Of a stretch of 64,000 nt of DNA, positions 12,504-35,503 are shown in pieces. The notes under the pieces were generated by a model. That model was not told the origin of the DNA. It searched no databases and was given only the letters and a program-made list of their open reading frames with translations. Made by a program: the position numbers and the translations under genes. This DNA comes from Minisyncoccota bacterium (GTDB lineage: Bacteria; Patescibacteriota; Minisyncoccia; Phycocordibacterales; UBA1550): contig JALNYL010000007.1 in NCBI GenBank assembly GCA_023229865.1, forward strand, positions 325 to 64,324, in the 5' to 3' direction. Each line of letters opens with the position of its first letter. Position 1 is the stretch's first letter.

Positions 12504-13043
12504 AAAAGAAAAAGCAGAATTAGAAAAAGCCGCACTTGGTGCGGCTTTTTTTGAATTTGGCGTCTATATGAGACGGAATGTGCTAAAAGAACAAGTACAG
12601 AGTTTCGGCGCCGTGTCTGGCGCAAGGAACAAGTGATGACTGTGCGAATACTCCCACAGATTAGATCATAAGCGATCAGCTTTGGAGTTGCGAGTCAACT
12701 AATAAAGGTCTGCATTTATTATACGCGAGTGAAGTTGCTCCTGCAAGACAACCCTGTGGATAACTTTACTCGCGCTTCTTTAGTTGCTTCCTTTTGAGAT
12801 AAAAAATTGCTTTCATCCTACGTTTTTTGGTAAGCCTTCTTTTTCTCACATTGAACCCTCCTGTAAATATAACAATATCCTCCCCTATGGTACGTGCTTG
12901 GAGGCGTAAAGTCAAAAAATTTGAAAAAACGGGGTTTTGTGGTAGTATTTTCCCATCAGTTTTGCCCCAATAGCTGTTTTGGTAGGCCCAGAGAGAGTGG
13001 CTTCCAAAGGAGCGACAGAGGGTAAATTGTTAAAATTTGTAAT

Positions 13044-13116
13044 GCCCCTATAGCTCAGTCGGTAGAGCAGCTCCCTTTTAAGGAGACGGTCGTTGGTTCG
13101 ATTCCAACTGGGGGCA
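13044..13116 (+). tRNA. tRNA-Lys (anticodon TTT)
   Basis: Cloverleaf GCCCCTA...TGGGGGC+A. Anticodon loop CTTTTAA. T-loop GGTTCGATTCC. Confidence 0.85.
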
Positions 13117-13123
13117 CACTCGC

Positions 13124-13157
13124 AAAAAGGCGGCAGGGGATTACCCCGCCGCCTTTT
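13124..13157. terminator. Bidirectional hairpin shared by tRNA-Lys and the convergent element
   Basis: AAAAAGGCGGCAGGGGATTACCCCGCCGCCTTTT. Confidence 0.6.
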
Positions 13158-13165
13158 GCTATGAG

Positions 13166-13267
13166 TGTGCCCCCAGTTGGAATCGAACCGGAGGCCCACC
13201 ATTTTAAAGGAGCGAAGCGACTATTAAAATGGATGGTCTCGACTGGAAGGAGAGGCGATTCCAACTG
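13166..13267 (-). repeat. tRNA-3'-end-mimic element, family A (Lys partner)
   Basis: Its 3' 24 nt are the inverted duplicate of the tRNA-Lys 3' end. The body GGAATCGCCTCTCC...CATCCATTTTAA...TTAAAATGG recurs at 18937-19046. 12-nt terminal inverted repeat CAGTTGGAATCG. Confidence 0.5.
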
Positions 13268-13362
13268 CAAGAAATATACTTAGTGATTTGTGACCACACT
13301 TAAAACGCATGGTCTCGACTGAAAGGAGAGGCGATTCCTATTTTTTCTGCTACAATTATCTT

Positions 13363-13797
13363 ATGAACAAAAAAGAACTTGCCCGCATGAGTTTTTCGAA
13401 GAAAAATTCTGGTGGGTTTACGAGCATTCTATTTCTTCTCGCTATTGTCGCCCTTGTGGGGACTGCGGGGTACATTACATTTACGAAAGATGATTCCGCG
13501 CCAACGGTCTCAGAAAACACACTTGCTCCCGTCGCGACGACAACAGAAGAGATAACCACCCCGATTTTTGTAGATACTCCAACCACCCCAGTCACCCCAG
13601 GTTCTTCAGCTACAAAACTTTTACAAGATTGTCCTGAGACTTGGTTTGATAACCAAATGCCGATGATCATTGATCCTGGACAGCCTCGCCCTGTGACACA
13701 GTATTTTATCTACAAAGGTGAACGACGAGAACTTGCCGAGTTTGATATGAAGTGGGTGAGCGCAAACTGCCCAGTGCAACCATCGGCAGTTTACTAG
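13363..13797 (+). CDS. Hypothetical membrane-anchored protein
   Basis: N-terminal TM helix GFTSILFLLAIVALVGTAGYITF. Confidence 0.35.
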   Translation: MNKKELARMSFSKKNSGGFTSILFLLAIVALVGTAGYITFTKDDSAPTVSENTLAPVATTTEEITTPIFVDTPTTPVTPGSSATKLLQDCPETWFDNQMPMIIDPGQPRPVTQYFIYKGERRELAEFDMKWVSANCPVQPSAVY

Positions 13798-13877
13798 GGT
13801 TTGACCAAAAAGTGTTTTTATGGAAGTATCTCAATTAGAGATACTTTTTGTTTTTTTAACTACTGATGGAGGTCGTC

Positions 13878-14435
13878 ATGCAACTTATTCTCCCGAAGAA
13901 CTTTGTTGAGGTTGGGGCGGATTCGTTTTATGCAAAAACGCCACTGTTTTTCTTGGCTGGGCCAGTGCTTGGTGGTGGGGATTGGCAGAGGAAAATGCTC
14001 CACCTTATCAATCAACGCCAAGAGCATTGCCTCGTCGCAATCCCTTGTCGGTATCCCGAGGAGGATGAGATTCGCAGGCTCCATGTCCCCAATTATGCGC
14101 AAAATGTTTTTGCGCATCAGACGCATTGGGAGCGCTGTTATCTCAGGCACGCCGCTCAAAAGGGATGCATTATCTTTTGGCTCGGAGAGGAAGATAAATT
14201 CAACCCACGAGATGACGGCGAGCCATATGCGCGGGACACCAGGGGTGAGATTGGTGCGTGGGGGGTGCATCTCAAATATGTCCCATCGTTTAGAGTTGTT
14301 GTTGGCGCTGAGCCAGGCTTCCCAGGACTCAGTGTTATCAAGCGCAACCTCGACGACGAGCTTGGTTATGACTTCCCGATATATTCCACCATGGAAGACA
14401 CGGTGAAAGCGGCGGTGCGAAAGTTGTACGAGTAG
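13878..14435 (+). CDS. Rossmann-like protein, possibly a nucleoside 2-deoxyribosyltransferase/LOG-like fold
   Basis: GGAGG RBS. N-terminal LFFLAGPVLGGGDWQ resembles the NDT YLAGP motif. Confidence 0.3.
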   Translation: MQLILPKNFVEVGADSFYAKTPLFFLAGPVLGGGDWQRKMLHLINQRQEHCLVAIPCRYPEEDEIRRLHVPNYAQNVFAHQTHWERCYLRHAAQKGCIIFWLGEEDKFNPRDDGEPYARDTRGEIGAWGVHLKYVPSFRVVVGAEPGFPGLSVIKRNLDDELGYDFPIYSTMEDTVKAAVRKLYE

Positions 14436-14542
14436 TTTGATTCAAAAAGGAGGTCATCGAGACCTCCTTTTCTTTTTGGTATATTTATGTAAGTATAACG
14501 GCAGAAACATCCCTGTTGTTTAATTGTTACAAGGAGACAGAA

Positions 14543-14971
14543 ATGACCGACGATAATCGCTTGATTTACAAAGAGCCTCTCTCGGTAAAAATAGCGCGGT
14601 ATTTAAAGCAGAAGGGGTTCCAGGCCGCATCTATTCATTCTGGTGCAGCCATGGACTCTCTAGCGGGGGCGTCCTGCTTTGGTGTGTTATATCAAGACCC
14701 CGCCATAAAACAGAAGACGTATTTCTGGGGGCTCATCAAGGGGGACACGCCCAGGAGAATTTATCTTGGGGACATTTACATCGACGGGGGAAACCCTCGT
14801 TCGAGCGCGGACCACTGGCGTTTCGAAATGTACGGCAAAGAATATTTCGAGATTGCAAAAGGGTTGGCGAGTGAACTCGTTAAAGAGTTCAATGTCAAAA
14901 TCACGTTTAAGGTTGCTGAAGACTGTGTGAAGCACGAGGGATTCCCCTCCGATTCAGATCCTGGGTGGTGA
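14543..14971 (+). CDS. Hypothetical protein
   Basis: AGGAGA RBS. No motif recognised. Confidence 0.3.
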   Translation: MTDDNRLIYKEPLSVKIARYLKQKGFQAASIHSGAAMDSLAGASCFGVLYQDPAIKQKTYFWGLIKGDTPRRIYLGDIYIDGGNPRSSADHWRFEMYGKEYFEIAKGLASELVKEFNVKITFKVAEDCVKHEGFPSDSDPGW

Positions 14972-15026
14972 CAAATAACACCGAGCTGAAATTGAGCTCG
15001 GTGTTTTCTTTTTGTGCTCTTTAGGA

Positions 15027-15440
15027 TTATAGTGGCAAGTCGACAGCGAACGCTCCTGCGCCAAAGAAGAGGAGAGAGAATGACGCGACCGCGAGGAGAA
15101 TATAAAACTCAGTTGTGTTGTGGGGAAGAGCAGATGGTTTGCGCCACTTGATAAGTGACATGATCATCATGATTGCTCCCATTGCAATAGCTGCCCCTTG
15201 GGTGTAGAAACCGACCACAAGAAGTGCGCCTGCGATTCCCAAAAGAGATGAAATGACAGTCGCGAAAACTTTTGCGGGGCGGAGGCCAAGCTTTTCGTAG
15301 AAATGAATTTGTTCAGACTTCTCGCTCGTTGCTTGCTTGTACCAAAGAGACACAAAAATAAACCCAAGGACAACGCGAAGCAAAAAGACGCCAAGCATTT
15401 GATAATCAAAAAAAGCGGGGAAGAGAGATACTGTTTGCAT
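15027..15440 (-). CDS. DoxX-family membrane protein
   Basis: Four predicted TM helices with DoxX-like spacing. Confidence 0.55.
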   Translation of the reverse strand: MQTVSLFPAFFDYQMLGVFLLRVVLGFIFVSLWYKQATSEKSEQIHFYEKLGLRPAKVFATVISSLLGIAGALLVVGFYTQGAAIAMGAIMMIMSLIKWRKPSALPHNTTEFYILLAVASFSLLFFGAGAFAVDLPL

Positions 15441-15516
15441 TGGTTCATTGTAACAAACTTACCCCTCGTTGCCAAAAGAAAAAGACCGCCAGCGGATGCG
15501 GGCGGTCTGAGATAAA

Positions 15517-15993
15517 TTACTTCTGGTATTTCGAGATATCTATCCCGATATCGAGGGGGCCAAAGGCGAGAGGGAGTAGTTCCTTTATGGATGTGATAAT
15601 GATTTTATCCATCTTCGTTGTCGAAAGAACAAACCCGAAATCTCCGCCAGAGACTTGAGACAGTTCGTAGAGCATTTGGCGGCAACTTCCACAAGGCGCC
15701 GTGACAGTGTTGGTGTCAAAGGTTTCCCCTCGCGCAATGATAGCAATGCCACGAAATTTTCGTAACCCTACTGCGTTTGCAGCTAAAATTGCTGCACGTT
15801 CTGCGCATATCGTTGACCCATATGCTGCATTTTCAACATTTGAGCCAGAGATAAGGGTCCCGTCTTCTGCAATAAGTGTCGCTCCTACATAGAAATGAGA
15901 GTAGGGGTTGTAGGCGTTTTCCATTGCTTCAGCTGCAGCGAGAAGTGCGTTTTGTTGGATTTGAGACAACTCATCAAAAAAGATGTTTCGCAT
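15517..15993 (-). CDS. cdd: Cytidine deaminase
   Basis: Zinc-ligand motifs CAERAAI and PCGSCRQ. Confidence 0.85.
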   Translation of the reverse strand: MRNIFFDELSQIQQNALLAAAEAMENAYNPYSHFYVGATLIAEDGTLISGSNVENAAYGSTICAERAAILAANAVGLRKFRGIAIIARGETFDTNTVTAPCGSCRQMLYELSQVSGGDFGFVLSTTKMDKIIITSIKELLPLAFGPLDIGIDISKYQK

Positions 15994-16121
15994 GGGTTTC
16001 TCCGTTTGTTTGTTAAGAACAGTGACCTTTCACAAAACTACTCTTTTGGGGGAGGGAAGTCAAATAGGGGAATAATTACAAAAGGGCGCGCGCTTCATCC
16101 GAAGCGCGCGCCCTTTTGTAA

Positions 16122-17390
16122 TTATTTCTTGAACCCGAGTTTTATAAGTTCTTCTTTTGCGACGGTCGCGTCATCCCATGGAGTCTTGGTGCCATTGGGT
16201 CCCATGATGTAGGGGTCGGTGCCTTTACCGGTGATAATGACTGCGTCGCCTGTTTTTGCGAAGGAGAGTGCCTTTGCTATGGCAGCACGGCGGTCCATAA
16301 TGATTTCAACTTTCCCCTCCTCGATGCCTTCTCGTATTTCCTCAACAATTTTTTGTGGGTCTTCGTCGTAAGGGTCTTCATCAGTGAGAATGATTTCGTC
16401 GCAGTGTGCACTCGCGATTGCTCCCATTGCGGGGCGCTTCCATGAGTCACGTCCGCCACCCGTGCCACCAAGCACACAAATCTTTCGCGAGTCTTGGAAA
16501 ACCTCGTACACTTTTTCGAGTGAGTCGGGAGTGTGTGCGTAGTCGACGACGACATCAAATTCCTGCCCTTGATTTACGCGCTCGACGCGGCCACGAATGC
16601 CGTGGAATTTTTCGAGGGCACGACGGATGACCTCAGGGGCGATATTCTGTGTGCGCGCAAAGGAGATTCCTGCAAGAATGTTTGAAAGATTGAACGCGCC
16701 CGAAAGGTGTGCCTCGAGAGGTGCCCCCATAAAGGTAAATGTTGTATCGTCTTTTTTGAGCGTGTACGGCTCTGCATCTTTGAGGGAGTAGGTTGTTTTT
16801 GTTTCTGCGTCAACTGCGAGAAATTCTTTTGCATATTCATTGTCAGCGTTTGCAACAATGATGCGTGGGCGCTTTGGGGATTTTGCGAGAGCTTGCGCGA
16901 TGGAAAGTTTTGCCTCTTTGTAATTCTCAAATGAGCCATGTGACTCGATGTGTTCAGGGGAGAGGTTGGTAAAAATGAGCGCATCAAAATCAATGAATTT
17001 GTGACGGAACTGACGTGCCCCTTCAGAAGTCATCTCAATGATTACCCAATCACATTTCGCATTTACAGCGCGACGCAAAAAACGCTGCACAAAAAAACGT
17101 CCCGGGATTGTCATCTTGTAGAGATTGCGCTCCTCATCCTCTCCGATCTTAAAACGAAGGGTCCCTGCGAGTGCGGTGCGGTATCCCGCCTCCTCAAGGA
17201 TAGCACTCACGATCTCTGTGGTTGATGTTTTCCCTTTTGTGCCTGTGATGGCAATGACGCCAATATGGCGAGAGGGGAAGCGGTATATGGTCGCAGCAAG
17301 AAGCGCAAAGAGATAATGATATGCAGGTTGAAATGCGCGGAAGATATTGCGCGGAATTATTTTTTTAATAATGCGGAGAATGTTTTCCAT
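16122..17390 (-). CDS. Mur ligase family protein (MurE/MurT-like)
   Basis: ATP site VIAITGTKGKTSTTE. DYAHTPDSLEKV motif. Confidence 0.65.
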   Translation of the reverse strand: MENILRIIKKIIPRNIFRAFQPAYHYLFALLAATIYRFPSRHIGVIAITGTKGKTSTTEIVSAILEEAGYRTALAGTLRFKIGEDEERNLYKMTIPGRFFVQRFLRRAVNAKCDWVIIEMTSEGARQFRHKFIDFDALIFTNLSPEHIESHGSFENYKEAKLSIAQALAKSPKRPRIIVANADNEYAKEFLAVDAETKTTYSLKDAEPYTLKKDDTTFTFMGAPLEAHLSGAFNLSNILAGISFARTQNIAPEVIRRALEKFHGIRGRVERVNQGQEFDVVVDYAHTPDSLEKVYEVFQDSRKICVLGGTGGGRDSWKRPAMGAIASAHCDEIILTDEDPYDEDPQKIVEEIREGIEEGKVEIIMDRRAAIAKALSFAKTGDAVIITGKGTDPYIMGPNGTKTPWDDATVAKEELIKLGFKK

Positions 17391-17402
17391 AAATAGTTAA
17401 TA

Positions 17403-17981
17403 TTATTTTCCGAGTTGCTTCAGAGCTTCTTTGATACGTGCACTCGTTCCCTTGATATCTGCGGGAACTTGTTTGAGTGCCTCACGTGCGGCACGTTCTG
17501 CGTAGCCGAGTGCGACGAGGCCTTCGATCGCATCACGTTCGCCACTGAGCATTGTCTCTCCGGTAATGCTCTCATCGCCACCGAGTTTTTCGCGGAGCTC
17601 GAGAATGATCTTCTGCGCACTCTTTGAGCCAATCCCTGAAACTTTTGTCAGCGCTCCCGTGTCGCCCATAGCAATCGCCTCCTTGAGGTGTTCGACGGGG
17701 GCGACGTTGAGAATCCCGAGCGCACTCTTGGGGCCGATGCCCGAGACGCTAATAAGGAGCTCAAAGAAATCGAGCTCGCTTTGGTGTTCAAACCCGTACA
17801 AATCGAGGGCGTCTTCGCGGACAACCGTGTAAATCCAAAGGGACGCTTTTTTGTCGGCGTTCTTTTTGAGAGTAATGAGGGTGTCGACCGTGGTGCGGAC
17901 CTTGTATCCCACCCCTGCGGTTTCGATGATGATATATTTGTCTCCCGCAAAGAGAATAGTGCCAGAAAGATGAGCGATCAT
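17403..17981 (-). CDS. ruvA: Holliday junction DNA helicase RuvA
   Basis: MIAHLSGTI... N-terminus. Two HhH motifs. C-terminal domain III. Confidence 0.85.
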   Translation of the reverse strand: MIAHLSGTILFAGDKYIIIETAGVGYKVRTTVDTLITLKKNADKKASLWIYTVVREDALDLYGFEHQSELDFFELLISVSGIGPKSALGILNVAPVEHLKEAIAMGDTGALTKVSGIGSKSAQKIILELREKLGGDESITGETMLSGERDAIEGLVALGYAERAAREALKQVPADIKGTSARIKEALKQLGK

Positions 17982-18263
17982 AGGTACATAATAACGGAAA
18001 GGGGCAGGAAAGGCGAATTCTTGCAGCTATCCCGTTTGTGTGGTAGATTGTTGGAGTCTCAGTGCCGAGTTCAAAAAATTACTCGGTTTGAGCCTATCCC
18101 AAAAGGAACTTTCCTACTTCGCCCCGCAATCGTCGGTGCAAATGAATAAATCTTTTGTCGCCTTATCTCGATAAGGCTTCGCAAGTTTTATTCATTTTCA
18201 CTCGACGATATCGTGGCTCGTGACGGAGGCCCTTTCGGGACAGGCTCTTAATAAATTTAAGTT

Positions 18264-18527
18264 ATGCCAATTATTAAATCAGCAAAACGCAATATTCGTA
18301 GCTCAGCTCGCAAGGCGGTTTATAACACACGCCGCAGCAAGGCTATGAAGGAAGTGGTTAAGGAAGTGCGCACCCTCGTTGCTTCAAAGGACAAGAAGTC
18401 CGCAGAGGCTCTCCTTTCAAAAGCCTACAAGGCAATCGACAAGGCAGCAAAGGGAAACACTATCAAGAAAAACACTGCATCTCGCAAGAAGTCACGCCTC
18501 GCAAAGGCAATCAAGAAAATCGCGTAA
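18264..18527 (+). CDS. rpsT: 30S ribosomal protein S20
   Basis: MPIIKSAKRNIRSSARKAVYN... Followed by the terminator at 18528-18563. Confidence 0.9.
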   Translation: MPIIKSAKRNIRSSARKAVYNTRRSKAMKEVVKEVRTLVASKDKKSAEALLSKAYKAIDKAAKGNTIKKNTASRKKSRLAKAIKKIA

Positions 18528-18581
18528 AGCACAAAAAACCGACCTTTTGAAAAGGTCGGTTTTTTGTTATTATATATTGAT

Positions 18582-18896
18582 ATGAAAAAGATTAATCCCG
18601 TAGAAGCTCAAGTGCTTGTTGGAAAAGGAGAGGTTGTCGTTCTTGATGTTCGCACTCTAGCAGAATTTGCTGAAGGACACATCGCGGGCGCAAAAAATAT
18701 TGATATTTACAGTGATGAATTTTCGGAAGCTGTGCGCACGCTTCCTGCTGACGCGACGTATGTAGTGAACTGTCGCAGTGGCGCGCGTTCATCCCAGGCA
18801 TGTTCATTTATGGAGGAGCTTGGTTTTAGAAATGTAATGAATCTCGAAGGGGGAATCATGGCGTGGATGAGTGCTGGGTTGGCAACGGAGAAGTAA
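18582..18896 (+). CDS. Rhodanese-domain protein
   Basis: Active-site CRSGARS loop. Confidence 0.75.
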   Translation: MKKINPVEAQVLVGKGEVVVLDVRTLAEFAEGHIAGAKNIDIYSDEFSEAVRTLPADATYVVNCRSGARSSQACSFMEELGFRNVMNLEGGIMAWMSAGLATEK

Positions 18897-18936
18897 GCGG
18901 GTCTCCATGTGGTCCTAGTCCTGCTGAAAGCAAAGC

Positions 18937-19046
18937 AGTTTGTTGATTCGGAATCGCCTCTCCTTTCAGTCGAGACCATCCATTTTAATAGTCGCTGCGC
19001 TCCTTTAAAATGGTGGGCCTTCGGTTCGATTCCTACCGAGAGCACA
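18937..19046 (+). repeat. tRNA-3'-end-mimic element, family A (Arg-GCG partner)
   Basis: Same body as 13166-13267 in the opposite orientation. The last 24 nt GGTTCGATTCCTACCGAGAGCACA are identical to the 3' end of the convergent tRNA. Confidence 0.5.
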
Positions 19047-19051
19047 AAAGC

Positions 19052-19076
19052 AAAAACACCCTTCCGGGTGTTTTTT
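19052..19076. terminator. Bidirectional hairpin
   Basis: AAAAACACCCTTCCGGGTGTTTTTT. Confidence 0.6.
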
Positions 19077-19080
19077 CCTG

Positions 19081-19152
19081 TGCTCTCGGTAGGAATCGAA
19101 CCTACATCGTGGGTACCGCAAACCCATATCCTATCCATTGAACGACGAGAGC
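19081..19152 (-). tRNA. tRNA-Arg (anticodon GCG as read from the 7-nt loop TTGCGGT)
   Basis: Acceptor GCTCTCG/CGAGAGC. T-arm GTAGGTTCGATTCCTAC. Perfect 5-bp anticodon stem TGGGT/ACCCA. Confidence 0.6.
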
Positions 19153-19295
19153 AATTTGTTCTATTTGATTAACTTTGCCCCCGTGCCTTTTGCGAGGTCT
19201 TATTCAGACTAAGCATAACAACGACGAGAGCGTTTTTCGAACCCACACACTCTACCATAAAACTCAGAAAAAGCAAAAAATCAGATGACCCCAGC

Positions 19296-19775: not shown

Positions 19776-19829
19776 ATACTAGTAGTGTACCAAAGCGATT
19801 GCATCTTCGCTACCCCATAAGGTACAATA

Positions 19830-20549: not shown

Positions 20550-20597
20550 TCTGGTAAAGAAAAAGCCGCTCCACAAAAATATGCGAGCGGCTGAATG

Positions 20598-23938: not shown

Positions 23939-25093
23939 ATGGAACCACTCGCATCGAAAATTCGCCCCAAGAAACTCAAGGACTATATAGGCCAGAGCCA
24001 TCTCGTCGGCGAGGGCAAGCCTCTTCGTATCGCCATTGAGAAAAAGCATCTATTCTCGTTCATCCTCTGGGGCACGCCCGGTGTAGGGAAGACGACGCTC
24101 GCACGTATGTATGCCGAGGCACTCGATGCAGACTTTTACGAACTCTCAGCTGTGTCCGCAGGCAAAGACGACATACGAAAAATAATTGCCGAAGGGAAAG
24201 GCGAGCTCGCACTCAAGTCTCGCCCCAAGATTCTCTTCCTCGACGAGATTCATCGTTTCAATAAAAGCCAGCAGGATTTTCTCTTGCCATATGTGGAGTC
24301 GGGAGAGCTCACGCTTATTGGTGCCACTACTGAGAACCCAAGTTTTGAAGTCATTGCACCGCTTCTTTCACGTTGTCGTGTGTTTGTATTGAACGAGCTC
24401 TCTCATGACGAGATGAAACTCATCGTCTCTCGTGTAGAAAAAAGTGAAAAGATAAAAATCGACAAAAGTGCAAAAGAGTGGCTCATCAGTATGGCCAACG
24501 GCGATGCACGCCAAGCTATCGCAATGCTCGAAGCAACACTCAACCTCTATGGTCTCATCGACGTGCACAATCTCACCGAGACACTACAGTCGAAGTTCTT
24601 GCGTTACGACAAGAAAGGGGAGGAGCACTACAATACTATCAGTGCATTTATAAAAAGCATGCGGGCGAGTCAGCCTGATGCTGCTCTTTACTACCTCGCA
24701 CGAATGATTGACGCAGGTGAGGATCCAAAGTTTATCGCGAGGCGTATGGTGATATTTGCGAGCGAAGATGTGGGCCTCGCGCAACCGACTGCACTCGTGG
24801 TGGCGAATGAAGTTTTTCGCGCGGTAGAAACTATTGGACTTCCCGAAGCGGGGATCAATCTCGCGCATGGCGTCGCGTATCTTGCGCAGGCGAAAAAAGA
24901 TCGCTCCGCATATGATGCGTTCAACTCTGCAATGGCCGATGTAAAAAATTTCGGCAATCTCCCCATCCCGCTCAAAATAAGAAACGCCCCCACGAAACTT
25001 ATGAAAGACCTCGACTACGGCAAGGGATACGAGATGTACACGAAGGAAGATTTGCTACCGGAGAAACTGAAGAAGAAGAAGTATCTGGGGTAA
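23939..25093 (+). CDS. rarA: Recombination factor RarA/MgsA (AAA+ ATPase)
   Basis: Walker [13 protein letters not shown]. Walker [12 protein letters not shown]. MgsA C-terminal domain. Confidence 0.85.
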
Positions 25094-26557: not shown

Positions 26558-26572
26558 GTGGTTAGTAGAATA

Positions 26573-26605: not shown

Positions 26606-26635
26606 CTGTTAAGTCTTTTTACAGACTACTGAAAA

Positions 26636-27604: not shown

Positions 27605-27671
27605 GGTTAATAATTAACTCTACAACGTCGAAGACGTTGCAAGGGGTGAAATCTTACAGGAGCGTTCTTTT

Positions 27672-27839
27672 TGTATTTGGGTGAGATGCGGTCACGAGTT
27701 ACTAAGTCTGCTTAGGTGATTACACCTTGCGCGGACTAAGTACTCTCGACCCCGAGTCCAAGACACAAATCTGCTGATTCGTCGGCGTCTGAAATGCTTA
27801 CGCATTTCTCTGCCTCCGTCCTTCGAATCTCACCCTGCA
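27672..27839 (+). repeat. tRNA-3'-end-mimic element, family B (Ser partner), containing the 64-nt imperfect palindrome at 27690-27753
   Basis: Palindrome GGTCACGAGTTACTAAGTCTGCTTAGGTGATTACACCTTGCGCGGACTAAGTACTCTCGACCCC. The 3' end CTTCGAATCTCACCCTGCA mirrors the tRNA-Ser 3' end. Flanking inverted repeat GGGTGAGAT/ATCTCACCC. Confidence 0.5.
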
Positions 27840-27850
27840 TATAAACGCCA

Positions 27851-27881
27851 AAGCCCGATACCTATTAAAGGTATCGGGCTT
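27851..27881. terminator. Bidirectional hairpin
   Basis: AAGCCCGATACCTATTAAAGGTATCGGGCTT. Confidence 0.55.
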
Positions 27882-27889
27882 AGCCGTTG

Positions 27890-27976
27890 CGGATAGGGTG
27901 AGATTCGAACTCACGGTCCGGTTGCCCAGACTCCTGTTTTCAAGACAGGTGCATTCGACCACTCTGCCACCTATCC
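27890..27976 (-). tRNA. tRNA-Ser (anticodon TGA)
   Basis: Acceptor GGATAGG. Anticodon loop CTTGAAA. Long variable arm. T-loop GTTCGAATC. Confidence 0.85.
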
Positions 27977-28056
27977 AAGGTTGCGTGATCTGCTTGCCTA
28001 TCCTATCAAAAATTGCCAAAAACGCAATGTTTGGGGTGGTGTGCTATCATATCCCT

Positions 28057-28473: not shown

Positions 28474-28485
28474 CAACAAACAATT

Positions 28486-28914
28486 ATGATTACCTTCGAC
28501 GAATTCAAAAAAGCAGAAATTAAAATCGGAACAATTCTTTCCGCAGAAAAAGTTCCTGAAGCGGACAAGCTCATCAAGCTCTCGATTGATCTCGGTCCAA
28601 AACCAAAGGCGCCTACGGTAGCCGACGTGGTCGCAGAGATTTTGCCAGAAGGGGAGGGTGCGCCCATTGTCCCCGAAGAAGTAAAAGAAGAAGTCGTAGA
28701 GCAAGACATCCGCCAGATTCTTTCTGGTATTGCCGAGCACTACCCTGACCCGTCAGTGCTCGTTGGCAAGCAGGTGCCTGTCCTCGCAAATCTCCCTACG
28801 CGTACGATTCGCGGTTATGAGAGCCAAGGGATGGTGCTCTATGCTGTTGGCGGAGATTTTCTTACGACAGTCAATCCAGATCGTGTGATCCCCAACGGTA
28901 CCAACGTTCAATAA
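28486..28914 (+). CDS. tRNA-binding (CsaA/Trbp111-like OB-fold) protein with an acidic insert
   Basis: KIGTILSAEKVPEADKLIKLSIDLG. The C-terminal region resembles the MetRS C-terminal domain. Confidence 0.55.
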   Translation: MITFDEFKKAEIKIGTILSAEKVPEADKLIKLSIDLGPKPKAPTVADVVAEILPEGEGAPIVPEEVKEEVVEQDIRQILSGIAEHYPDPSVLVGKQVPVLANLPTRTIRGYESQGMVLYAVGGDFLTTVNPDRVIPNGTNVQ

Positions 28915-28919
28915 TTTTT

Positions 28920-29525
28920 ATGCCGGATTTTCTTCATATCGACATTGCTAGTCTTGTGCAAGCGTTTGGGCTCCTTGGGCTCCTCGTCATCGTCTTTGTT
29001 GAGTCGGGTGTTTTCTTCGGTTTCTTTTTCCCGGGGGACAGTCTTCTTTTTACTGCGGGACTCCTTGCGTCACAGGGTTTTCTCAATATCTGGGCACTCC
29101 TCCTCCTTGTCCCCCTTGCGGCGATTCTCGGAGTTAACTTCGGCTATTGGTTTGGTAAAAAAGTTGGCCAGAAACTTTTTACGCGCGAGGATTCATTCTT
29201 TTTTGATAAGCAGCACATTGAACGTACGCGTGCCTTTTATGCAAAGCACGGCGTGAAGGCGATTGTACTTTCGCGTTTCACCCCCGTGGTGCGCACCTTC
29301 ACACCGATTCTCGCGGGGGTCGGAGAAATGCCCTACAAAATATTTATGAAGTTTAATATTCTTGGCGGACTCCTTTGGACGACGAGTATGCTCGGGCTCG
29401 GTTACTCTCTTGGAACCATTGTTCCTGATATCGATACGTATCTTTTGCCGATTGTTCTCCTTATCATTTTCATCTCTTTTTTGCCGGTAATCCGAGAGGT
29501 TGTTAAAAATAAACAAGGTAAATAA
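28920..29525 (+). CDS. DedA/VTT-family membrane protein
   Basis: GFFFPGDSLLFTAGLLAS motif. Confidence 0.75.
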   Translation: MPDFLHIDIASLVQAFGLLGLLVIVFVESGVFFGFFFPGDSLLFTAGLLASQGFLNIWALLLLVPLAAILGVNFGYWFGKKVGQKLFTREDSFFFDKQHIERTRAFYAKHGVKAIVLSRFTPVVRTFTPILAGVGEMPYKIFMKFNILGGLLWTTSMLGLGYSLGTIVPDIDTYLLPIVLLIIFISFLPVIREVVKNKQGK

Positions 29526-29572
29526 AGGGGAGGGGCTGTGCAAAAAGTGGGTGCGGAGGTATACTAAAGGAA

Positions 29573-30652
29573 ATGGCGCGCAGTAAATTTTACCAATTTT
29601 TTCCTCCACCACAGTTCGTTCAGATGCCTGCGGTGGGTCTCGACATCTCGGATACCTCGATGCGCTTTGTCGAGCTTGTTGAAAAGCGCAAGGGTTTTGT
29701 AATCGGTGCCTTTGGAGAATACGGGATTCCACAAGGGGTTATTGAATCAGGCGAAGTGAAAAAGCCAGAAGAGCTTCGCGCTCTTTTTCTTGAGCTCAAA
29801 AAAGAACACCCAGAGCTCGAATTCGTTTCCGTGTCGCTTCCTGAAGAAAAAGCGTATCTCTTTGAGTTGCGTTTGCCTATTATGAAGTACAGCGAGGTTC
29901 GTGGTTCTATTGAGTTTGGACTTGAAGAGCACGTCCCCCTCACTGCAGCCGAAGCACTTTTTGATTACGAGATTATCAAGGAGGACAATGCAAGTATCTA
30001 TGCGAGTGTTTCTGTCGTCCCCCGCACACTTGTCGAAGGATATCTAGAAGCGTTCAAGGAGACGGGGATTACCCCAATAGCGTTTGAGATGGAGGCGCAC
30101 TCTTTGGCTCGCGCGGTTATTCCGCGAGGGGATACAGAGACATGCATGATCGTTGATTTCGGTAAGACACGTACGGGGATCGCAATAATTTCCGACGGGG
30201 TTGTGCAATTTACATCGACCATCCCTGTCGGGGGAACCTCTCTCACTGAGTCCATTGCAAAAAATCTTAAGATTGCATACGATGAAGCAGAGAAAATAAA
30301 ACGAGAGAAGGGGATTTCGGGGAGTAGTGGAGACGAAAATCTTTTTCTCGCTGTAATGTCGACGATCTCGGTTCTTCGTGAGGAGATCAATAAACATCAG
30401 ACATATTGGCAAGAGCACGCAGATAGTTATGGCAACAGGCGCCTCCCTATCAAAAAAATATACCTTTGCGGAGGGGACTCAGTGCTCGCCGGTTTCCCCG
30501 GATTTCTTGCTACGGGACTTTCTTCTCCTGTTGAGCTTTCCAATACCATGGTGAATGTAAACACTCTTGAAGACTACATCCCAGAAATAAGTTTTAACGA
30601 TTCATTGCGTTATGCAGCAGCGCTCGGTCTTGCGTTGCGCCGTCCTCAATAA
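29573..30652 (+). CDS. pilM: Type IV pilus assembly protein PilM
   Basis: Actin-like ATPase fold. N-terminal VGLDISDTSMRFVEL. Confidence 0.7.
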   Translation: MARSKFYQFFPPPQFVQMPAVGLDISDTSMRFVELVEKRKGFVIGAFGEYGIPQGVIESGEVKKPEELRALFLELKKEHPELEFVSVSLPEEKAYLFELRLPIMKYSEVRGSIEFGLEEHVPLTAAEALFDYEIIKEDNASIYASVSVVPRTLVEGYLEAFKETGITPIAFEMEAHSLARAVIPRGDTETCMIVDFGKTRTGIAIISDGVVQFTSTIPVGGTSLTESIAKNLKIAYDEAEKIKREKGISGSSGDENLFLAVMSTISVLREEINKHQTYWQEHADSYGNRRLPIKKIYLCGGDSVLAGFPGFLATGLSSPVELSNTMVNVNTLEDYIPEISFNDSLRYAAALGLALRRPQ

Positions 30653-30660
30653 TTATCATC

Positions 30661-31224
30661 ATGCTCAATCTCCTCTCTACAGAAGAAAAGAAAAAAGTAT
30701 TGAATGAATATCGCCTTCGTCTTGCGGTTATTGTGACGCTTGCTGTCGGGGTGCTTGTCCTCGCAAGTTTTGAACTCCTCATTCCTTCATATGTGCTTGC
30801 TTCGTTGAAATATAGTAATGCGCAAAAAAATATTGTTGTCTTGGAAGAAAAATACGGAAGCAATGCTAAAGAAAAAGAATTGGCCGAGCAGGTGCGCAAC
30901 ACCAATATGAAGGTTGCGACGCTGACTGACACAACCGCGGATACCCGCCTCCTTTTCTCGCAGATTGTCGCGAACACACTAAAGGTTAAGGGGGACGAAA
31001 TCAAAATAACGGGATTTAGGTATGATGCTTCCTCAGCCCAGGAAAGAATATCTGTTTCGGGGACCGCACGTCATCGTGACAGTTTGGCTGCGTTTGTTGA
31101 TGCTCTCAAAAAAGACACAACATATTCCAGCGTCACCTTTCCGATTTCTAGTTATGTCAAAAGCGAAGATATTAGTTTTTCTGTAATATTGGACCGTAAG
31201 GCGGCAGCCACAAAAAAGAAATAA
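30661..31224 (+). CDS. PilN-like bitopic membrane protein
   Basis: Single TM helix after a short cytoplasmic N-terminus. Position after pilM. Confidence 0.45.
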   Translation: MLNLLSTEEKKKVLNEYRLRLAVIVTLAVGVLVLASFELLIPSYVLASLKYSNAQKNIVVLEEKYGSNAKEKELAEQVRNTNMKVATLTDTTADTRLLFSQIVANTLKVKGDEIKITGFRYDASSAQERISVSGTARHRDSLAAFVDALKKDTTYSSVTFPISSYVKSEDISFSVILDRKAAATKKK

Positions 31225-31225
31225 C

Positions 31226-31762
31226 ATGTTTAAAACAAAACAAAAAACATTAATTCTTTTGGGGATCGCATCGGTCTTTATGCTTGGAAGTATCGGAGGT
31301 TATGCTGCGCTCTTTTTTGCGATCAAAGATAAAACAATAGCAACCACCCCTCTCGTTGAAAAAATAGACGAGCTCTCAAATAGAGAAGCGCGCATCACTG
31401 CTTCTATTGCAACCCTGCGTGCTGAGAATGAAAAAGTAGAAAAACTTTTTGCCTACTTCTTTAAAGAAAATGATATCGTCACGTTTGCAAAAAAGATAGA
31501 GCTCCTGGGGATTGAGTCAGGGGCAGAAGTTACTCTTGATGGACTTGAACAAGCCATTGTCAACAAAACAACGCCCACACTCAGCTTCCGTATTTCTGCG
31601 TTAGGGGGATTTGATAACATTCAGCGACTCATGCTCCTCCTAGAAAATTTCCCCGGCAAACTAGAATGGAAATCAGCAAGCGTCACAAGGAGCAATCAGA
31701 CGCTCCCCGCAGAGTGGCGTTTTGATGCGTCGCTTACGATGCGTAATTTCCTTAATGAATAA
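31226..31762 (+). CDS. PilO-like bitopic membrane protein
   Basis: TM helix plus coiled coil. Operon position. Confidence 0.4.
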   Translation: MFKTKQKTLILLGIASVFMLGSIGGYAALFFAIKDKTIATTPLVEKIDELSNREARITASIATLRAENEKVEKLFAYFFKENDIVTFAKKIELLGIESGAEVTLDGLEQAIVNKTTPTLSFRISALGGFDNIQRLMLLLENFPGKLEWKSASVTRSNQTLPAEWRFDASLTMRNFLNE

Positions 31763-31766
31763 CATT

Positions 31767-32099
31767 ATGTTAAAAAAAGATTGGAAAAAAGAATTAAAAA
31801 AATTAACCTTCTCGCGTGGGAAAGATAGCCTTCGTATGGAGCTAACGCCTTTTCGTGATTGGCGTATCATTGTGGTTACCTTCTTCCTCTCCCTTTTTCT
31901 TTCTGTTGGGTTCAATATCTACATTTCTTCAGAAGCAAACCGCGATGCCTTCTTCTCTGCGGAGGCAAAGCAGACCGTTGGTGTTATAAAATTTAACCAA
32001 GACGCACTCGCTAAAGTTATTAAAGAGATAGATGACAAGGCGACGCGCTATGAAAAAGTGAAGACTGAGCAAATGTTACTGATTGACCCATCCCTTTAG
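31767..32099 (+). CDS. Hypothetical small membrane protein, fourth gene of the pilMNO operon
   Basis: ATG 4 nt after the PilO stop. One TM helix. Confidence 0.3.
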   Translation: MLKKDWKKELKKLTFSRGKDSLRMELTPFRDWRIIVVTFFLSLFLSVGFNIYISSEANRDAFFSAEAKQTVGVIKFNQDALAKVIKEIDDKATRYEKVKTEQMLLIDPSL

Positions 32100-32127
32100 T
32101 ATTGCTAGAGTGCTGAAAGGACAATCT

Positions 32128-32202
32128 GCCCCTGTAGTTAAATGGATATAACTGCGGACTTCTAAGCCGTTATTCGAGGTTCGATTCCTCGCGGGGGCAC
32201 CA
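32128..32202 (+). tRNA. tRNA-Arg (anticodon TCT), CCA encoded
   Basis: GCCCCTGTAGTTAAATGG... Loop CTTCTAA. T-arm CGAGGTTCGATTCCTCG. Acceptor CGGGGGC + ACCA. Confidence 0.8.
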
Positions 32203-32206
32203 AGGC

Positions 32207-32251
32207 AAAACAAAATACTACCCAAGTTTCACTTGGGTAGTATTTTGTTTT
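32207..32251. terminator. Long perfect bidirectional hairpin (about 19-bp stem)
   Basis: AAAACAAAATACTACCCAAGTTTCACTTGGGTAGTATTTTGTTTT. Confidence 0.6.
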
Positions 32252-32269
32252 AGCAAGCAACCTGCGTTG

Positions 32270-32464
32270 CTTGCGTGCCTTGGTGCCCCCGCGTGGAATC
32301 GAACGAGAAGGGGGTCGGGGAAACATCTGTTTTCCCGTGGAGGAAGGATTGGGAAAACCGTGGGTTTCCCAGGAGTGAGATAGCGAAGCGTCCACGCGGC
32401 GGGGTCGAGAGTACTTAGTCCGCGCAAGATGTAATCATCTGAGCAGACTTAGTAACTCGTGACC
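32270..32464 (-). repeat. tRNA-3'-end-mimic element, family B (Arg-TCT partner)
   Basis: The 3' end (window 32281-32305) is the inverted copy of the tRNA-Arg 3' end including CCA. The 5' end is the 64-nt palindrome at 32401-32464. Confidence 0.5.
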
Positions 32465-32570
32465 ACAAGGTACCTCTGCTATCTTCCAATTCGTCGCCAC
32501 TGATTTTTTCGTACCTCAAAAATCAGGCTTCGCGGCGACTCGGTTCGAACCCCTCATCGCCACACAAACA
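32401..32570 (+). repeat. tRNA-3'-end-mimic element (Val partner), sharing the palindrome at 32401-32464 back-to-back with the previous element
   Basis: The 3' end GGTTCGAACCCCTCATCGCCACA matches the tRNA-Val 3' end with one mismatch and one deleted nt. Confidence 0.4.
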
Positions 32571-32609
32571 AAAAGACGAGAACGCAGAAGCGTTCTCGTC
32601 TAATGTTTG

Positions 32610-32682
32610 TGGGCGATGAGGGATTCGAACCCCCGACCTTCGCTGTGTAAAAGCGCTGCTCTACCAACTGAGCTAATCGCCC
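32610..32682 (-). tRNA. tRNA-Val (anticodon TAC)
   Basis: GGGCGATTAGCTCAGTTGGTAGAGC... Loop TTTACAC. T-loop GGTTCGAATCC. Confidence 0.85.
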
Positions 32683-32771
32683 TCTATTTCCTTGGTTCCA
32701 ACACAATATCACGAACCTCATTTATCTTCAAGTCCTTGCGTTTTGGAGCTTGGCACGTTAGGGTAATTGAT

Positions 32772-33047
32772 ATGCAAAAGCGCCTTGAGTCAAAAATTGC
32801 TGGCCGTGTGCAGATGGTTATGTTTCGTGACTTCACGACGCGAAAGGCGCGAGCCCTAGGCCTCGTCGGCACTGTCCGCAACAATCCAGATAGCACCGTT
32901 TCAGTGATTGCAGAAGGAGAAGAAGAGAAACTTCAAGAACTCCTCAGGCTCTTAAAAAAAGGTTCCGTACTTTCGCGTGTCGACGAAGTGACCGAGAAGT
33001 GGTCGGAGTGCTTGGGGGGTTATAAGAATTTTGATATTCTGTATTAG
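32772..33047 (+). CDS. acyP: Acylphosphatase
   Basis: GRVQMVMFRDFT motif. Length 91 aa. The upstream ORF extension lies over the tRNA. Confidence 0.8.
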   Translation: MQKRLESKIAGRVQMVMFRDFTTRKARALGLVGTVRNNPDSTVSVIAEGEEEKLQELLRLLKKGSVLSRVDEVTEKWSECLGGYKNFDILY

Positions 33048-33190
33048 TAGTCGCCCACGCATCCACAGCTACTTTGTTGCAGGTGTACAATTTTTTGTCA
33101 CCATAGCAAAAGTATGGCTCCAGAAAATTATACACCTGCGCCTCGTACCTGTGGCGCCTGAGCAACTACATTTTAGGAGAAAATATTTAC

Positions 33191-33871
33191 ATGTCAGAAC
33201 AAAAAATCAATTGTGTCGCGGTCATCATGGACGGCAATCGCCGCTGGGCCCGCGCACACAACAAACCAACTCTCGAGGGACACAGCGAAGGATACAAAAA
33301 ACTCCAAGATGTTGTCGGCTGGGCTCGTGAAGCAGGGGTCCCGCACATTATCGCATTCGCATTCTCCACAGAAAACTGGCAGCGCAGCGAAGATGAAGTC
33401 GGCTACCTCATGAAGCTCTTCAACTCAGTGCTTGAAAACGAAACAGAAAAAATGATTCGTGAGCGCATCCGCATTCGTTTTGTTGGCGACCGCGACCGCT
33501 TCGCGGAAGATGTGCGCGCAAAAATGGAGAAAATGGAAGAAGCGACTTCGAAAAATTTTGACATCACGCTTCATCTTGCAATGTCGTATGGTGGACGAGC
33601 AGAAATCCTTGCCGTGACAAATACCCTTATTGCAAAAGGGCAACCAGCTACCGAAGAAGATTTTTCAAAAGCGCTTTGGACAAGCGATATGCCCGACCCT
33701 GATATCCTTATTCGTACAGGAGGGGAGCATAGACTCTCGGGTTTCCTCCCGTGGCAGTCGGTGTATAGCGAGCTCTTTTTTGTGGACGCATATTGGCCAG
33801 AGTTTTCAGAAGAGATCTTTACTAATATTCTCAAAGAGTTCAAGGACCGTGAACGTCGCATGGGGAAGTAG
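33191..33871 (+). CDS. uppS: Undecaprenyl diphosphate synthase
   Basis: MDGNRRWA and DPDILIRTGGEHRLSGFLPWQ motifs. Confidence 0.9.
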   Translation: MSEQKINCVAVIMDGNRRWARAHNKPTLEGHSEGYKKLQDVVGWAREAGVPHIIAFAFSTENWQRSEDEVGYLMKLFNSVLENETEKMIRERIRIRFVGDRDRFAEDVRAKMEKMEEATSKNFDITLHLAMSYGGRAEILAVTNTLIAKGQPATEEDFSKALWTSDMPDPDILIRTGGEHRLSGFLPWQSVYSELFFVDAYWPEFSEEIFTNILKEFKDRERRMGK

Positions 33872-33882
33872 CTACTACTAAT

Positions 33883-34635
33883 ATGAACATCCCAATTTTA
33901 TACGAAGATGATGAAGTGCTCGCAATCAATAAACCTGCGGGGCTTGTTGTGCATCCCGATGGCCGCAGCTCAGAGCACACACTCTCTGATTGGCTCATTG
34001 AAAAGTACCCCAACATCCGTGGCGTAGGGGAAACGATCAACCTCACAAACGGGGGTGTGATTGAAAAGTGGGGCATCGTGCATCGCATTGATCGCGACAC
34101 CTCAGGTGTGCTTCTTGTCGCAAAGACACAGGAGTCATTTTTGAATTTGAAATCACAGTTTCAAGGGCGCACTATTAAAAAATCTTACCGCACGATTGCG
34201 CAGGGTTTTTTCAAGGAGAAATCAGGAACAATTAATCTTCCCATCGGTCGCTCAAAGAGCGATTTCCGTAGATGGTCGGCTGAGTATGGCGCTCGTGGCG
34301 AGCTTCGTGAAGCAGTGACGGATTACAAAGTGCTCGGAGAGGGGATGGTGACATTGCCAAAGAAAAAAGAAGTAGTGAGACTCACCTTCCTTGAGATAAA
34401 TCCTCACACGGGTCGCACCCACCAGATCCGCGTCCACCTAAAAGCCGTTGGGCACCCTATTTTGAGTGATGCGCTGTATTCACCAAAGTCGCCCAAGGTG
34501 CTTGGTTTTGAACGTATTGCCCTCCATGCTTTTTCTGTGGTTTTTAAAGGGCTCGATGGGGTGGAGCACAAGGTTGAAGCCCCTCTTCCTGACGATTTTT
34601 CCCGCGCTATTGCAGAACTTGGCCTCGTATGCTAG
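33883..34635 (+). CDS. RluA-family pseudouridine synthase
   Basis: Catalytic HRIDRDTSGVLLVAK. Confidence 0.85.
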   Translation: MNIPILYEDDEVLAINKPAGLVVHPDGRSSEHTLSDWLIEKYPNIRGVGETINLTNGGVIEKWGIVHRIDRDTSGVLLVAKTQESFLNLKSQFQGRTIKKSYRTIAQGFFKEKSGTINLPIGRSKSDFRRWSAEYGARGELREAVTDYKVLGEGMVTLPKKKEVVRLTFLEINPHTGRTHQIRVHLKAVGHPILSDALYSPKSPKVLGFERIALHAFSVVFKGLDGVEHKVEAPLPDDFSRAIAELGLVC

Positions 34636-34673
34636 AGTAGCCCAATATCTTTCAGGGAAAACTAATTAATAAT

Positions 34674-35099
34674 ATGGAAAATACAACGATTCAAATGAGC
34701 CCCGTAGCAGTAGCAAGCCGCAAGGATTTGCCTATTCGCGCTGGCGCAACCGTAAAGGTACACCTCAAGATTGAGGAAAAAGGTAAGGTTCGTATGCAGA
34801 TCTTTGAGGGCCTCGTACTTGCGGTAAAGGGTGGCAAGGGCAATGGTGCTATGTTCACCGTGCGCAAGGTTGCCTCAGGTGTAGGCGTTGAAAAGATTTT
34901 CCCCCTCTACTCACCATCAATCGAAAAGATTGAAATCGTTCGTCAGTCAGACGTTCGCCGTGCAAAGCTCTACTTCGTTCGCGGAAAGGTAGCTCGCGAT
35001 GTAAAGCGCAAGATGCGTCACACAAAGACTGGTGTAACCGTCCCTGTTCAGGAAGGAGAAGTTGCAGAGGAGGTGACTGCAGAGGAAGCGATTGCATAA
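34674..35099 (+). CDS. rplS: 50S ribosomal protein L19 with a C-terminal extension
   Basis: L19 core VKVHLKIEEKGKVRMQIFEGLVLAVKG... Confidence 0.85.
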   Translation: MENTTIQMSPVAVASRKDLPIRAGATVKVHLKIEEKGKVRMQIFEGLVLAVKGGKGNGAMFTVRKVASGVGVEKIFPLYSPSIEKIEIVRQSDVRRAKLYFVRGKVARDVKRKMRHTKTGVTVPVQEGEVAEEVTAEEAIA

Positions 35100-35109
35100 T
35101 TAAATCTCA

Positions 35110-35141
35110 GAAAAGGCGGTGCCGAGCGGCACCGCCTTTTT
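35110..35141 (+). terminator. Intrinsic terminator
   Basis: AAAAGGCGGTGCCGAGCGGCACCGCCTTTTT. Confidence 0.6.
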
Positions 35142-35200
35142 GCTTGAAAAATTTCGTCCTTTGGGGTATAGTGGCAAAACCTCAAGGACAGAAGAAATAT

Positions 35201-35284
35201 GCGCAGGTGGCGAAATTGGTAGACGCACTACCTTGAGGTGGTAGCGCCTTCACGGGCATGGAGGTTCAAGTCCTCTCCTGCGCA
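35201..35284 (+). tRNA. tRNA-Leu (anticodon GAG)
   Basis: Loop TTGAGGT. Long variable arm. Acceptor GCGCAGG/CCTGCGC. Confidence 0.85.
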
Positions 35285-35324
35285 CAAAATTAAAAGCCCC
35301 GACTCATGCGAGTCGGGGCTTTTA

Positions 35325-35485
35325 ATTTTGTGCGCAGGAAGCAAGACGCTGGTGCGTCTTGCGTGAGGACTTGAAAGCCGGAACCATACCGAGTGCAACG
35401 AGGTAGGTGAGGCGGGGTAGCGGATACTTAGTCCGCGGAAGGTGTAATCACCTGAGCAGACTTAGTAATCCGTGACCAAGTCCTC
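35325..35485 (-). repeat. tRNA-3'-end-mimic element, family B (Leu partner)
   Basis: Inverted tRNA-Leu 3' end at 35329-35379 carrying an inserted small hairpin. 64-nt palindrome at 35414-35477. Flanking inverted repeat GAGGACTTG/CAAGTCCTC. Confidence 0.5.
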
Positions 35486-35503
35486 CCTCCATTTCGTTAC
35501 CCC

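Follow-up and report, generated by a model that had tools for sequence, protein, structure and literature searches.

Integration of CTXphi by XerCD through a hairpin attachment (att) site leaves behind the order attL, loop, inverted att copy, element and attR. For insertion at the 3' end of tRNA genes, the general logic has been set out in a preprint on tycheposons: a new 3' end comes with the element, the partial tRNA that it displaces stays behind as a direct repeat, and successive insertions stack. Here we analyze a stretch of 64,000 nucleotides (nt), called the window throughout, from an ultra-small Minisyncoccota bacterium (GTDB lineage Bacteria; Patescibacteriota; Minisyncoccia; Phycocordibacterales; UBA1550; assembly GCA_023229865.1, contig JALNYL010000007.1, positions 325 to 64,324 of the forward strand), in which six of the seven tRNA genes face a short element carrying a mirrored copy of the gene's own 3' end. 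With moderate confidence, we interpret these elements as small, protein-less, non-autonomous integrative cassettes of Patescibacteria, resident in tRNA and transfer-messenger RNA (tmRNA) genes, which recombine at the T-loop and replace the tail of the tRNA.

ARAGORN and Rfam agree on the seven tRNA genes, all of which score as complete, and the remaining genes of the window are bacterial housekeeping genes (PolA, MurE, RarA, PilM, phosphoketolase, acetate kinase, L19, UppS, RuvX and a rhodanese). Downstream of six of the tRNAs, a hairpin terminator comes first and then, on the opposite strand, a copy of three parts of the tRNA itself: the T-loop and the 3' strands of the T-stem and the acceptor. 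These mirrored tails are about 25 nt long and sit 30-90 nt from the tRNA. A first-pass annotation of this DNA had described six tRNAs as convergent with an element that ends in such an inverted copy, and the matches are there at all six; it had also named tRNA-His as the one without a partner, and the same downstream search finds no inverted copy of its tail, leaving this gene as an unoccupied site. As a control for chance, we examined a wider set of tRNA and tmRNA genes, where an inverted match of at least 10 nt lies downstream of 45 of 87 genes and upstream of none of 86, the longest upstream match being 9 nt. The arrangement therefore recurs beyond the six loci first noticed, and one of the element bodies described below (type B) was found at 54 loci.

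As had been supposed, the mirrored copies are not themselves tRNAs: ARAGORN and Rfam find only the seven true genes, and neither the mirrored segments nor the elements show a cloverleaf or a covariance-model match as a tRNA or tRNA-like RNA. Rfam, run at gathering thresholds over the whole window and by E-value over the Ser, Arg-GCG and Arg-TCT/Val regions, returned the seven tRNAs and otherwise chance-level matches only. The palindromes formed by tRNA end, terminator and mirrored end are long, as claimed, but mostly not perfect, with arms of 29-48 nt at 79-100% identity. Their symmetry continues for 15-24 nt inside the tRNA, and conserved bodies are attached to it. An intrinsic bidirectional terminator was ruled out as the whole palindrome, since the symmetry extends into the tRNA and bare terminators are visible at empty sites. 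The terminators throughout the window are unusually long, near-perfect palindromes in their own right, with arms of 22-34 nt (8892-8963, 16071-16126, 53093-53136 and 35276-35339), which hints at a process that perfects or extends hairpins across the genome.

Read in the sense of the tRNA, the order is the same at the window elements and at more than 60 loci: tRNA 3' end (c), terminator, inverted copy (b'), structured body, direct repeat (a'); on the element strand, we write the two repeats as b and a. Of 71 inverted copies, 49 start at tRNA position 53/54 and the rest are acceptor-only copies that begin at 64-66; a' starts at position 56 in 23 cases, 57 in seven and 60 in eight. The gene remains intact, its junction with the element falling at T-loop position 55/56, and the boundary sequence is that of the T-loop, GTTCRA. 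Short repeats had been reported at the far boundary of the elements; they are confirmed at 13256-13267, 27679-27687 and 35477-35485, but what was called an inverted repeat is actually a direct repeat of the tRNA 3' segment. In the window a' is degenerate (7-12 nt), and in relatives it extends to 21 nt and includes the acceptor strand. Being complementary, a and b can pair and so enclose the body in a three-way junction. Insertion into a mirrored pseudo-T-arm was considered and rejected, because a contains an acceptor-strand complement, which that model cannot yield. The features of the window are as follows.

13044..13117, plus strand: tRNA-Lys(TTT), found by ARAGORN and Rfam; positions 54-73 are copy c
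13118..13165, no strand assigned: palindromic bidirectional terminator of tRNA-Lys and its cassette
13166..13267, minus strand: type A cassette at tRNA-Lys; b (tail mirror, 24 of 24 nt) 13166-13189, body 13190-13255, a 13256-13267, the complement of tRNA positions 56-67 and a direct repeat in the tRNA sense
13268..13338, minus strand: older-cassette debris beyond the Lys cassette, with a type-B-like hairpin fragment, GGTCACAAATCACTAAGTA, at 13268-13299 and a 39-nt duplicate of the type A 5' part at 13300-13338
18950..19046, plus strand: type A cassette at tRNA-Arg(GCG), 93% identical to the Lys copy; a 18950-18956, b 19023-19046 (24 of 24 nt)
19047..19152, minus strand: shared terminator (19047-19079) and tRNA-Arg(GCG) (19080-19152)
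27679..27836, plus strand: type B cassette at tRNA-Ser(TGA); a 27679-27687, conserved P2 hairpin 27690-27759, variable P3, b 27822-27836 (15 nt, TTCGAATCTCACCCT, T-loop and T-stem only, acceptor part absent)
27837..27976, minus strand: terminator and tRNA-Ser(TGA) (27889-27976)
32128..32275, plus strand: tRNA-Arg(TCT) (32128-32202), its terminator and a small hairpin
32276..32472, minus strand: composite cassette at tRNA-Arg(TCT); b 32276-32305 (about 25 nt, one mismatch, CCACG versus CCTCG), type D body 32306-32390, a (CCGCGTGGA) 32391-32399, type B P2 32395-32464
32467..32564, plus strand: type C element at tRNA-Val; b 32542-32564 (about 22 nt, two differences); a copy no longer present
32565..32682, minus strand: terminator (32574-32601) and tRNA-Val(TAC) (32609-32682)
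35201..35329, plus strand: tRNA-Leu(GAG) (35201-35285) and a terminator with perfect 30-nt arms
35330..35485, minus strand: type B cassette at tRNA-Leu; mirror 35330-35375 (11 nt and 13 nt with a 25-nt hairpin between), comprising the acceptor part of b 35330-35339, the inserted hairpin 35340-35364 and the T-loop/T-stem part 35365-35375; P3 and P2 follow b, P2 at 35408-35477 and a at 35477-35485
37027..37099, plus strand: tRNA-His(GTG), unoccupied site

Relatives of the tRNA-His site carry acceptor-only stubs or, in one case (L074), a convergent type-B-like model match 121 nt downstream of the gene, which is weak (18.2 bits, E 0.024).

Of 45 elements, 21 have the mirror b split by 23-27 inserted nt, the length being exactly 25 nt in 17; in the others, b is contiguous. 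The insertion sits exactly at the T-stem/acceptor junction of b and forms a hairpin in the examples inspected. The 25-nt hairpin reads ACGCAAG..GCAG..CTTGCT in the element sense, has a covarying stem and occurs in the mirror copy only, as at 35340-35364 in the window; it is found across body families and tRNAs, tmRNA included. Mirror copies can also carry a change of their own. At five tRNAs from different genomes (L003, L022, L027, L045 and L048), the T-loop TTCGAR has become TTCTCR in the mirror, the true tRNA reading TTCGA each time. Downstream of a tRNA-Cys (L008:4662-4735), a terminator is followed by a mirror of the whole T-arm and acceptor strand, which makes a bare palindrome with neither body nor direct repeat.

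The comparison of relatives at orthologous tRNAs, which the first-pass annotation had proposed, reveals presence/absence polymorphism at two sites, Arg/Val and Leu-GAG. About 30 relatives were anchored on the L19 gene beside tRNA-Leu (L19 80-97% identical) and so chosen independently of the elements; in this syntenic set, an inverted copy of at least 10 nt is present at 26 of 70 tRNAs and a direct copy at 18 of 70. Where the site between tRNA-Arg-TCT and tRNA-Val is empty (L067 and L080), the gap consists only of a palindromic terminator of 36-40 nt. In two filled sites (L087 and L088), tRNA-Arg is followed by a terminator whose flanks resemble those of the empty-site terminator of L080. Directly against that terminator lies an a copy, 17 nt long and without mismatch to the Val 3' end, and after it come a type B variant body, b, a second, unrelated terminator and tRNA-Val. 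L063 has the same arrangement, with a 21-nt a copy that includes the CCA. From filled versus empty sites it follows that a sits where the end of the tRNA lies in the empty site, and that the inserted block comprises the body and b together with a terminator and a tRNA tail that are both new.

Among the roughly 30 relatives, the orthologous tRNA-Leu(GAG) site is empty in some, carries a mirror stub of 3-11 nt or a deletion scar in others, and elsewhere holds cassettes of type B, type B variants, type A or type F, so that at least four body families have occupied this one site, in places as tandem arrays. The terminators after a' and after c are alike in only 2 of 26 pairs, and duplication of the target including its terminator was accordingly rejected as a general rule. 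In L076 and L056, the encoded CCA is absent from c and b' and kept in the displaced a' and the next b'. Because the two terminators are mostly unrelated and the CCA state of c/b' differs from that of a' and the next b', the cassette appears to arrive as a unit. Encoded CCA was also seen to flip between close relatives (window 32199-32202; L057-L064, L076 and L056), tracking the cassette that supplied the current 3' end. In some close relatives (L056, L068, L070, L073, L074 and L076), tRNA-Val is inverted with respect to the window (32609-32682), and it still converges with the adjacent type-B-family match, which points to inversion through recombination between inverted copies of the tRNA tail.

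The mirrored ends had been described as fused to a single conserved body. They are indeed fused to conserved bodies, but of several kinds: at least four families are present in the window, namely A (Lys and Arg-GCG), B (Ser, Arg-TCT and Leu), C (Val) and D (nested, at Arg-TCT). Type A is 97 nt long, and the core hairpin of type B, of about 68 nt, is 87-94% identical between copies. Families D, E and F and variants of type B occur at other loci with the overall design unchanged, and the elements measure 100-250 bp and contain no open reading frames (ORFs). Both type A bodies carry a promoter-like TTTAAA-16-TAAAAT on the strand of the tRNA direction (13203-13230, plus strand; 19009-18982, minus strand), which may be a chance product of the A+T-rich hairpin. 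The AAGCAGTT hairpin loop was considered as an uptake sequence and rejected, the motif not being enriched in the window (2 matches versus 3.1 expected).

To follow the spread of type B, we scanned with an exact pattern a collection with one genome per species, comprising 185,579 species. The core was found in 54 stretches, every one from metagenome-assembled genomes of Patescibacteria (Saccharibacteria, Paceibacterota, Nomurabacteria and Yonathbacteria). For about 35 of 57 copies, a tRNA of convergent orientation lies 80-320 nt downstream, with more than 15 isoacceptors represented, and several seemingly orphan copies face the 3' end of a tmRNA gene, so tmRNA genes are targets too. In the type B hairpin, 97.3% of cells are paired and 11 pairs have changed on both sides; none of 500 shuffles scored as high, and slid controls gave 25-42% pairing. 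A covariance model of type B gave 25 matches in the window and the loci chosen independently of the elements, of which 23 are convergent with a tRNA within 500 nt. Across classes, 29 columns are invariant, 24 of these being fixed by the search pattern itself. Bodies this conserved can hardly be debris, so some factor must recognise them in the form of RNA or of single-stranded DNA. No copy of the type A or type B core was found among the 2.9 million viral contigs of IMG/VR, and a phage origin was rejected on this ground. With these families, several conserved structured elements are newly defined in a phylum on which hardly any experimental work exists.

The layout, the sharp boundaries, the presence/absence polymorphism, the replacement of tails, the stacking, and the conservation and covariation of type B can be read directly from the sequences. 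The mechanism that we favor to connect them is as follows. The cassette would bring a replacement tRNA segment c, from about T-loop position 56 to the 3' end, together with its own bidirectional terminator, an inverted copy b' and a structured non-coding body of one of several families. Joining inside the T-loop would leave the gene intact and displace the original 3' end downstream, where it would persist as the direct repeat a'. Repeated insertion could then stack arrays, and deletion could leave stubs and scars. The mirror copy would pair with the tRNA end across the terminator, forming the long palindrome, and also with the displaced end, forming a closing stem around the body. As to the reaction itself, our preferred guess, drawn by analogy with CTXphi or integron attC sites, is that a folded or palindromic att hairpin recombines with the T-loop; DNA uptake followed by homology-facilitated recombination is the alternative. 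What the bodies do we can only infer.

Another possibility is that the elements are resident convergent small-RNA genes that share bidirectional terminators with the tRNAs, their tRNA-like end and its 5' complement being selected as RNA, where they would imitate a mini-helix to recruit RNase P, RNase Z or the CCA-adding enzyme, or serve as a decoy that draws off factors specific for the tRNA in question. Conserved structure is present in the bodies; folding of the full type B element at Leu gives a three-way junction with a z-score of -7.0; pairing of a with b rebuilds the acceptor and T-stem stack of the neighboring tRNA; and the precise 25-nt hairpin lies between the acceptor and T-stem parts of b in 21 of the 45 elements. 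At Arg-TCT in the window, a agrees with b and not with the tRNA, as judged by eye. This case is exceptional, however, since among 49 distinct elements the departures from the tRNA comprised 36 differences in b only, 50 in a only and none that was compensated. Compensatory change between a and b was sought as a sign of RNA-level selection and not found; the copies decay independently, and the closing stem thus gives no independent evidence of such selection. The strand of type B was compared by G-U versus A-C counts and by folding of both strands; neither singled out one strand, the z-scores being near equal (-6.8 for the opposite strand at Leu). No sigma-70-like promoter was found upstream of the window elements in the element sense, while one was found upstream of four of the seven window tRNAs (Lys, Arg-TCT, Leu and His), and at several loci a abuts a terminator. 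Empty sites and the turnover of families show that the tRNA needs no partner, and the position of a at the empty-site end of the tRNA is left unexplained. For these reasons we regard small-RNA genes as unlikely, and the first-pass annotation's view of the elements as convergent RNA genes, possibly processed at a tRNA-like end, gives way to one in which the comparisons point to DNA insertions at the T-loop, with the far repeat as the displaced tRNA end.

The main rival that we retain is local replication error. A template switch at the terminator hairpin would make b' by copying the end of the tRNA in reverse, and a second, at the self-complementary T-loop TTCGAA, would make a' once copying ran forward again, giving a direct-inverted-direct triplication into which bodies from other loci would be copied through T-loop microhomology. 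This would place the boundaries exactly at the T-loop, where they are (b at 53/54, a' at 56/57), and would let the arms match any tRNA without a tRNA-specific element. It would also fit the long near-perfect terminator palindromes across the genome and the near-identical terminators after c and a' in some arrays (L056 and partly L080; L069, L081 and L083 by eye). At Arg-TCT, the acceptor part of b fits the resident tRNA and the T-stem part keeps an older variant, which suggests conversion spreading outward from the center of the palindrome. However, the terminator after a' is unrelated to that after c in 24 of 26 well-preserved cases, the encoded CCA differs between c and a' with each agreeing with its own mirror, no b'-a' junction lacking a body was seen, and the extreme sequence conservation of type B across classes is unexpected for by-products. 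As a full account, replication-based triplication seems to us quite improbable, and it is possible as the route by which cassettes first originated. We give still less weight to the idea that these are ordinary scars of integrase-encoding islands or prophages at tRNA genes, that have since shrunk to about 150 bp. The classic footprint of such islands consists of direct repeats of the tRNA 3' segment, tRNA restoration and stacking, and larger cargo is found at the same sites. Against this, the short bodies are conserved families with covariation and not random remnants, the inverted copy and fixed orientation are foreign to island scars, the scanned flanks hold no integrase fragment, and the cores are absent from the viral contigs; decayed islands are thus very unlikely.

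Several points weigh against integrative cassettes as well. One body family serves many tRNAs (A at Lys, Arg-GCG and Leu; B at more than 15 species) though the arms must match each of them, and the model offers no route to this re-matching. The near-identical terminators on both sides in some arrays (L056; partly L080) fit local duplication too, and many loci have acceptor-length mirror stubs only. Given these stubs and the long terminator palindromes, growth of palindromes, rather than insertion, could account for some of the mirror symmetry. Neither a free or circular form nor any recent transposition within one genome was seen. Finally, no integrase, transposase or reverse transcriptase was found among 20 window ORFs scanned (ten, including the neighbors of tRNA loci, against Pfam and ten against NCBIfam only), and no recombinase, transposase or reverse transcriptase was found adjoining any copy.

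Larger protein-coding cargo does occur between the tRNA and old cassettes, flanked by repeats of the tRNA tail. For example, an OLD-family AAA/TOPRIM nuclease and a helix-turn-helix protein precede an array of at least three cassettes (L036:4665-7700); other inserts encode a protein with an ART-PolyVal ADP-ribosyltransferase domain (L010:3026-5000) and an 813-residue protein without assigned function (L086:2685-6450). No integrase family was detected among the scanned ORFs of the larger inserts, and the cargo-bearing sites look like defence islets. A broader and more doubtful version of the cassette interpretation, which we offer tentatively, is a 'tRNA integron' of Patescibacteria. Here any tRNA or tmRNA T-loop would dock cassettes whose folded palindromic att derives from the tRNA tail, the bodies B, D, E and A would be cis-acting or RNA parts for a recombination or reverse-transcription machinery, and the same sites would collect defence genes. 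Elsewhere in the window, an 89-nt inverted repeat (71% identity; 1331-1419 and 24231-24319) lies in two opposite-strand ORFs, one of them for a RarA-like ATPase, and is probably paralogous coding sequence.

If integrative cassettes are the right explanation, very small genomes would have a new means of acquiring and reshuffling DNA, in which units without genes land in the universally conserved T-loop and restore the interrupted tRNA. Such cassettes would explain the partial-tRNA debris and the tRNA annotation artefacts in genomes of the candidate phyla radiation. Defence genes are found at the sites too, which may accordingly correspond to the principal variable islands of such reduced genomes. 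The cassettes would also offer a concrete and testable model of how palindromic att sites and cassettes originate, which for integrons is still an open question.

Neither Rfam nor the literature searched, in full text, holds a description of such elements, the nearest logic being that of integrase-bearing tRNA islands such as tycheposons. The gene-less cassette, the obligatory att mirror, the fixed 25-nt hairpin within it, the conserved structured cores and the many tRNA species per body family are features without precedent. With tyrosine-integrase elements (P4-like islands, integrative and conjugative elements, tycheposons), the cassettes share the 3' part of tRNA or tmRNA genes as target, the element-supplied 3' end, the direct repeat and the stacking. 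They differ in being gene-less units of 100-250 bp with no integrase found nearby, in using more than 15 tRNA species per body family, and in carrying an extra inverted att copy and their own terminator in each cassette. Like miniature inverted-repeat transposable elements and the Correia, REP/BIME and PATE repeats, they are short, multi-copy, protein-less, intergenic and hairpin-rich, and often lie near terminators. Unlike in those repeats, however, the terminal inverted repeats copy the target, the neighboring tRNA, and so differ between copies; insertion is T-loop-specific with a fixed orientation, and the 'target duplication' is 17-21 nt from a fixed tRNA position. Like the tRNA-like RNAs (the tRNA-like domain of tmRNA, YrlA and mascRNA), they have a 3' end that mimics a T-arm and acceptor, and a long 5'/3' stem, but they show no intact T-arm or D-arm analogue and no Rfam match, and they mimic one specific neighboring tRNA through DNA duplication.

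Integron attC and CTXphi provide further parallels. Compared with integrons, the arms here are tRNA-specific, the core is GTTCRA (position 4 being C) and not GTTRRRY/RYYYAAC or dif, and the cargo is structured and non-coding; the 20 window ORFs scanned, neighbors of the tRNA loci among them, yielded no recombinase family and no adjacent intI, and any link to IntI or Xer is hypothetical. Yet in both, promoter-less cassettes are stacked in arrays, each ending in an imperfect palindrome (here c-terminator-b' and then a', its terminator and a second b'), with the newest adjoining the fixed site. The extra-helical feature on one arm of attC might have its counterpart in the 25-nt hairpin, and the order of att, loop, inverted att, element and att would, by analogy, be the same as that left by CTXphi.

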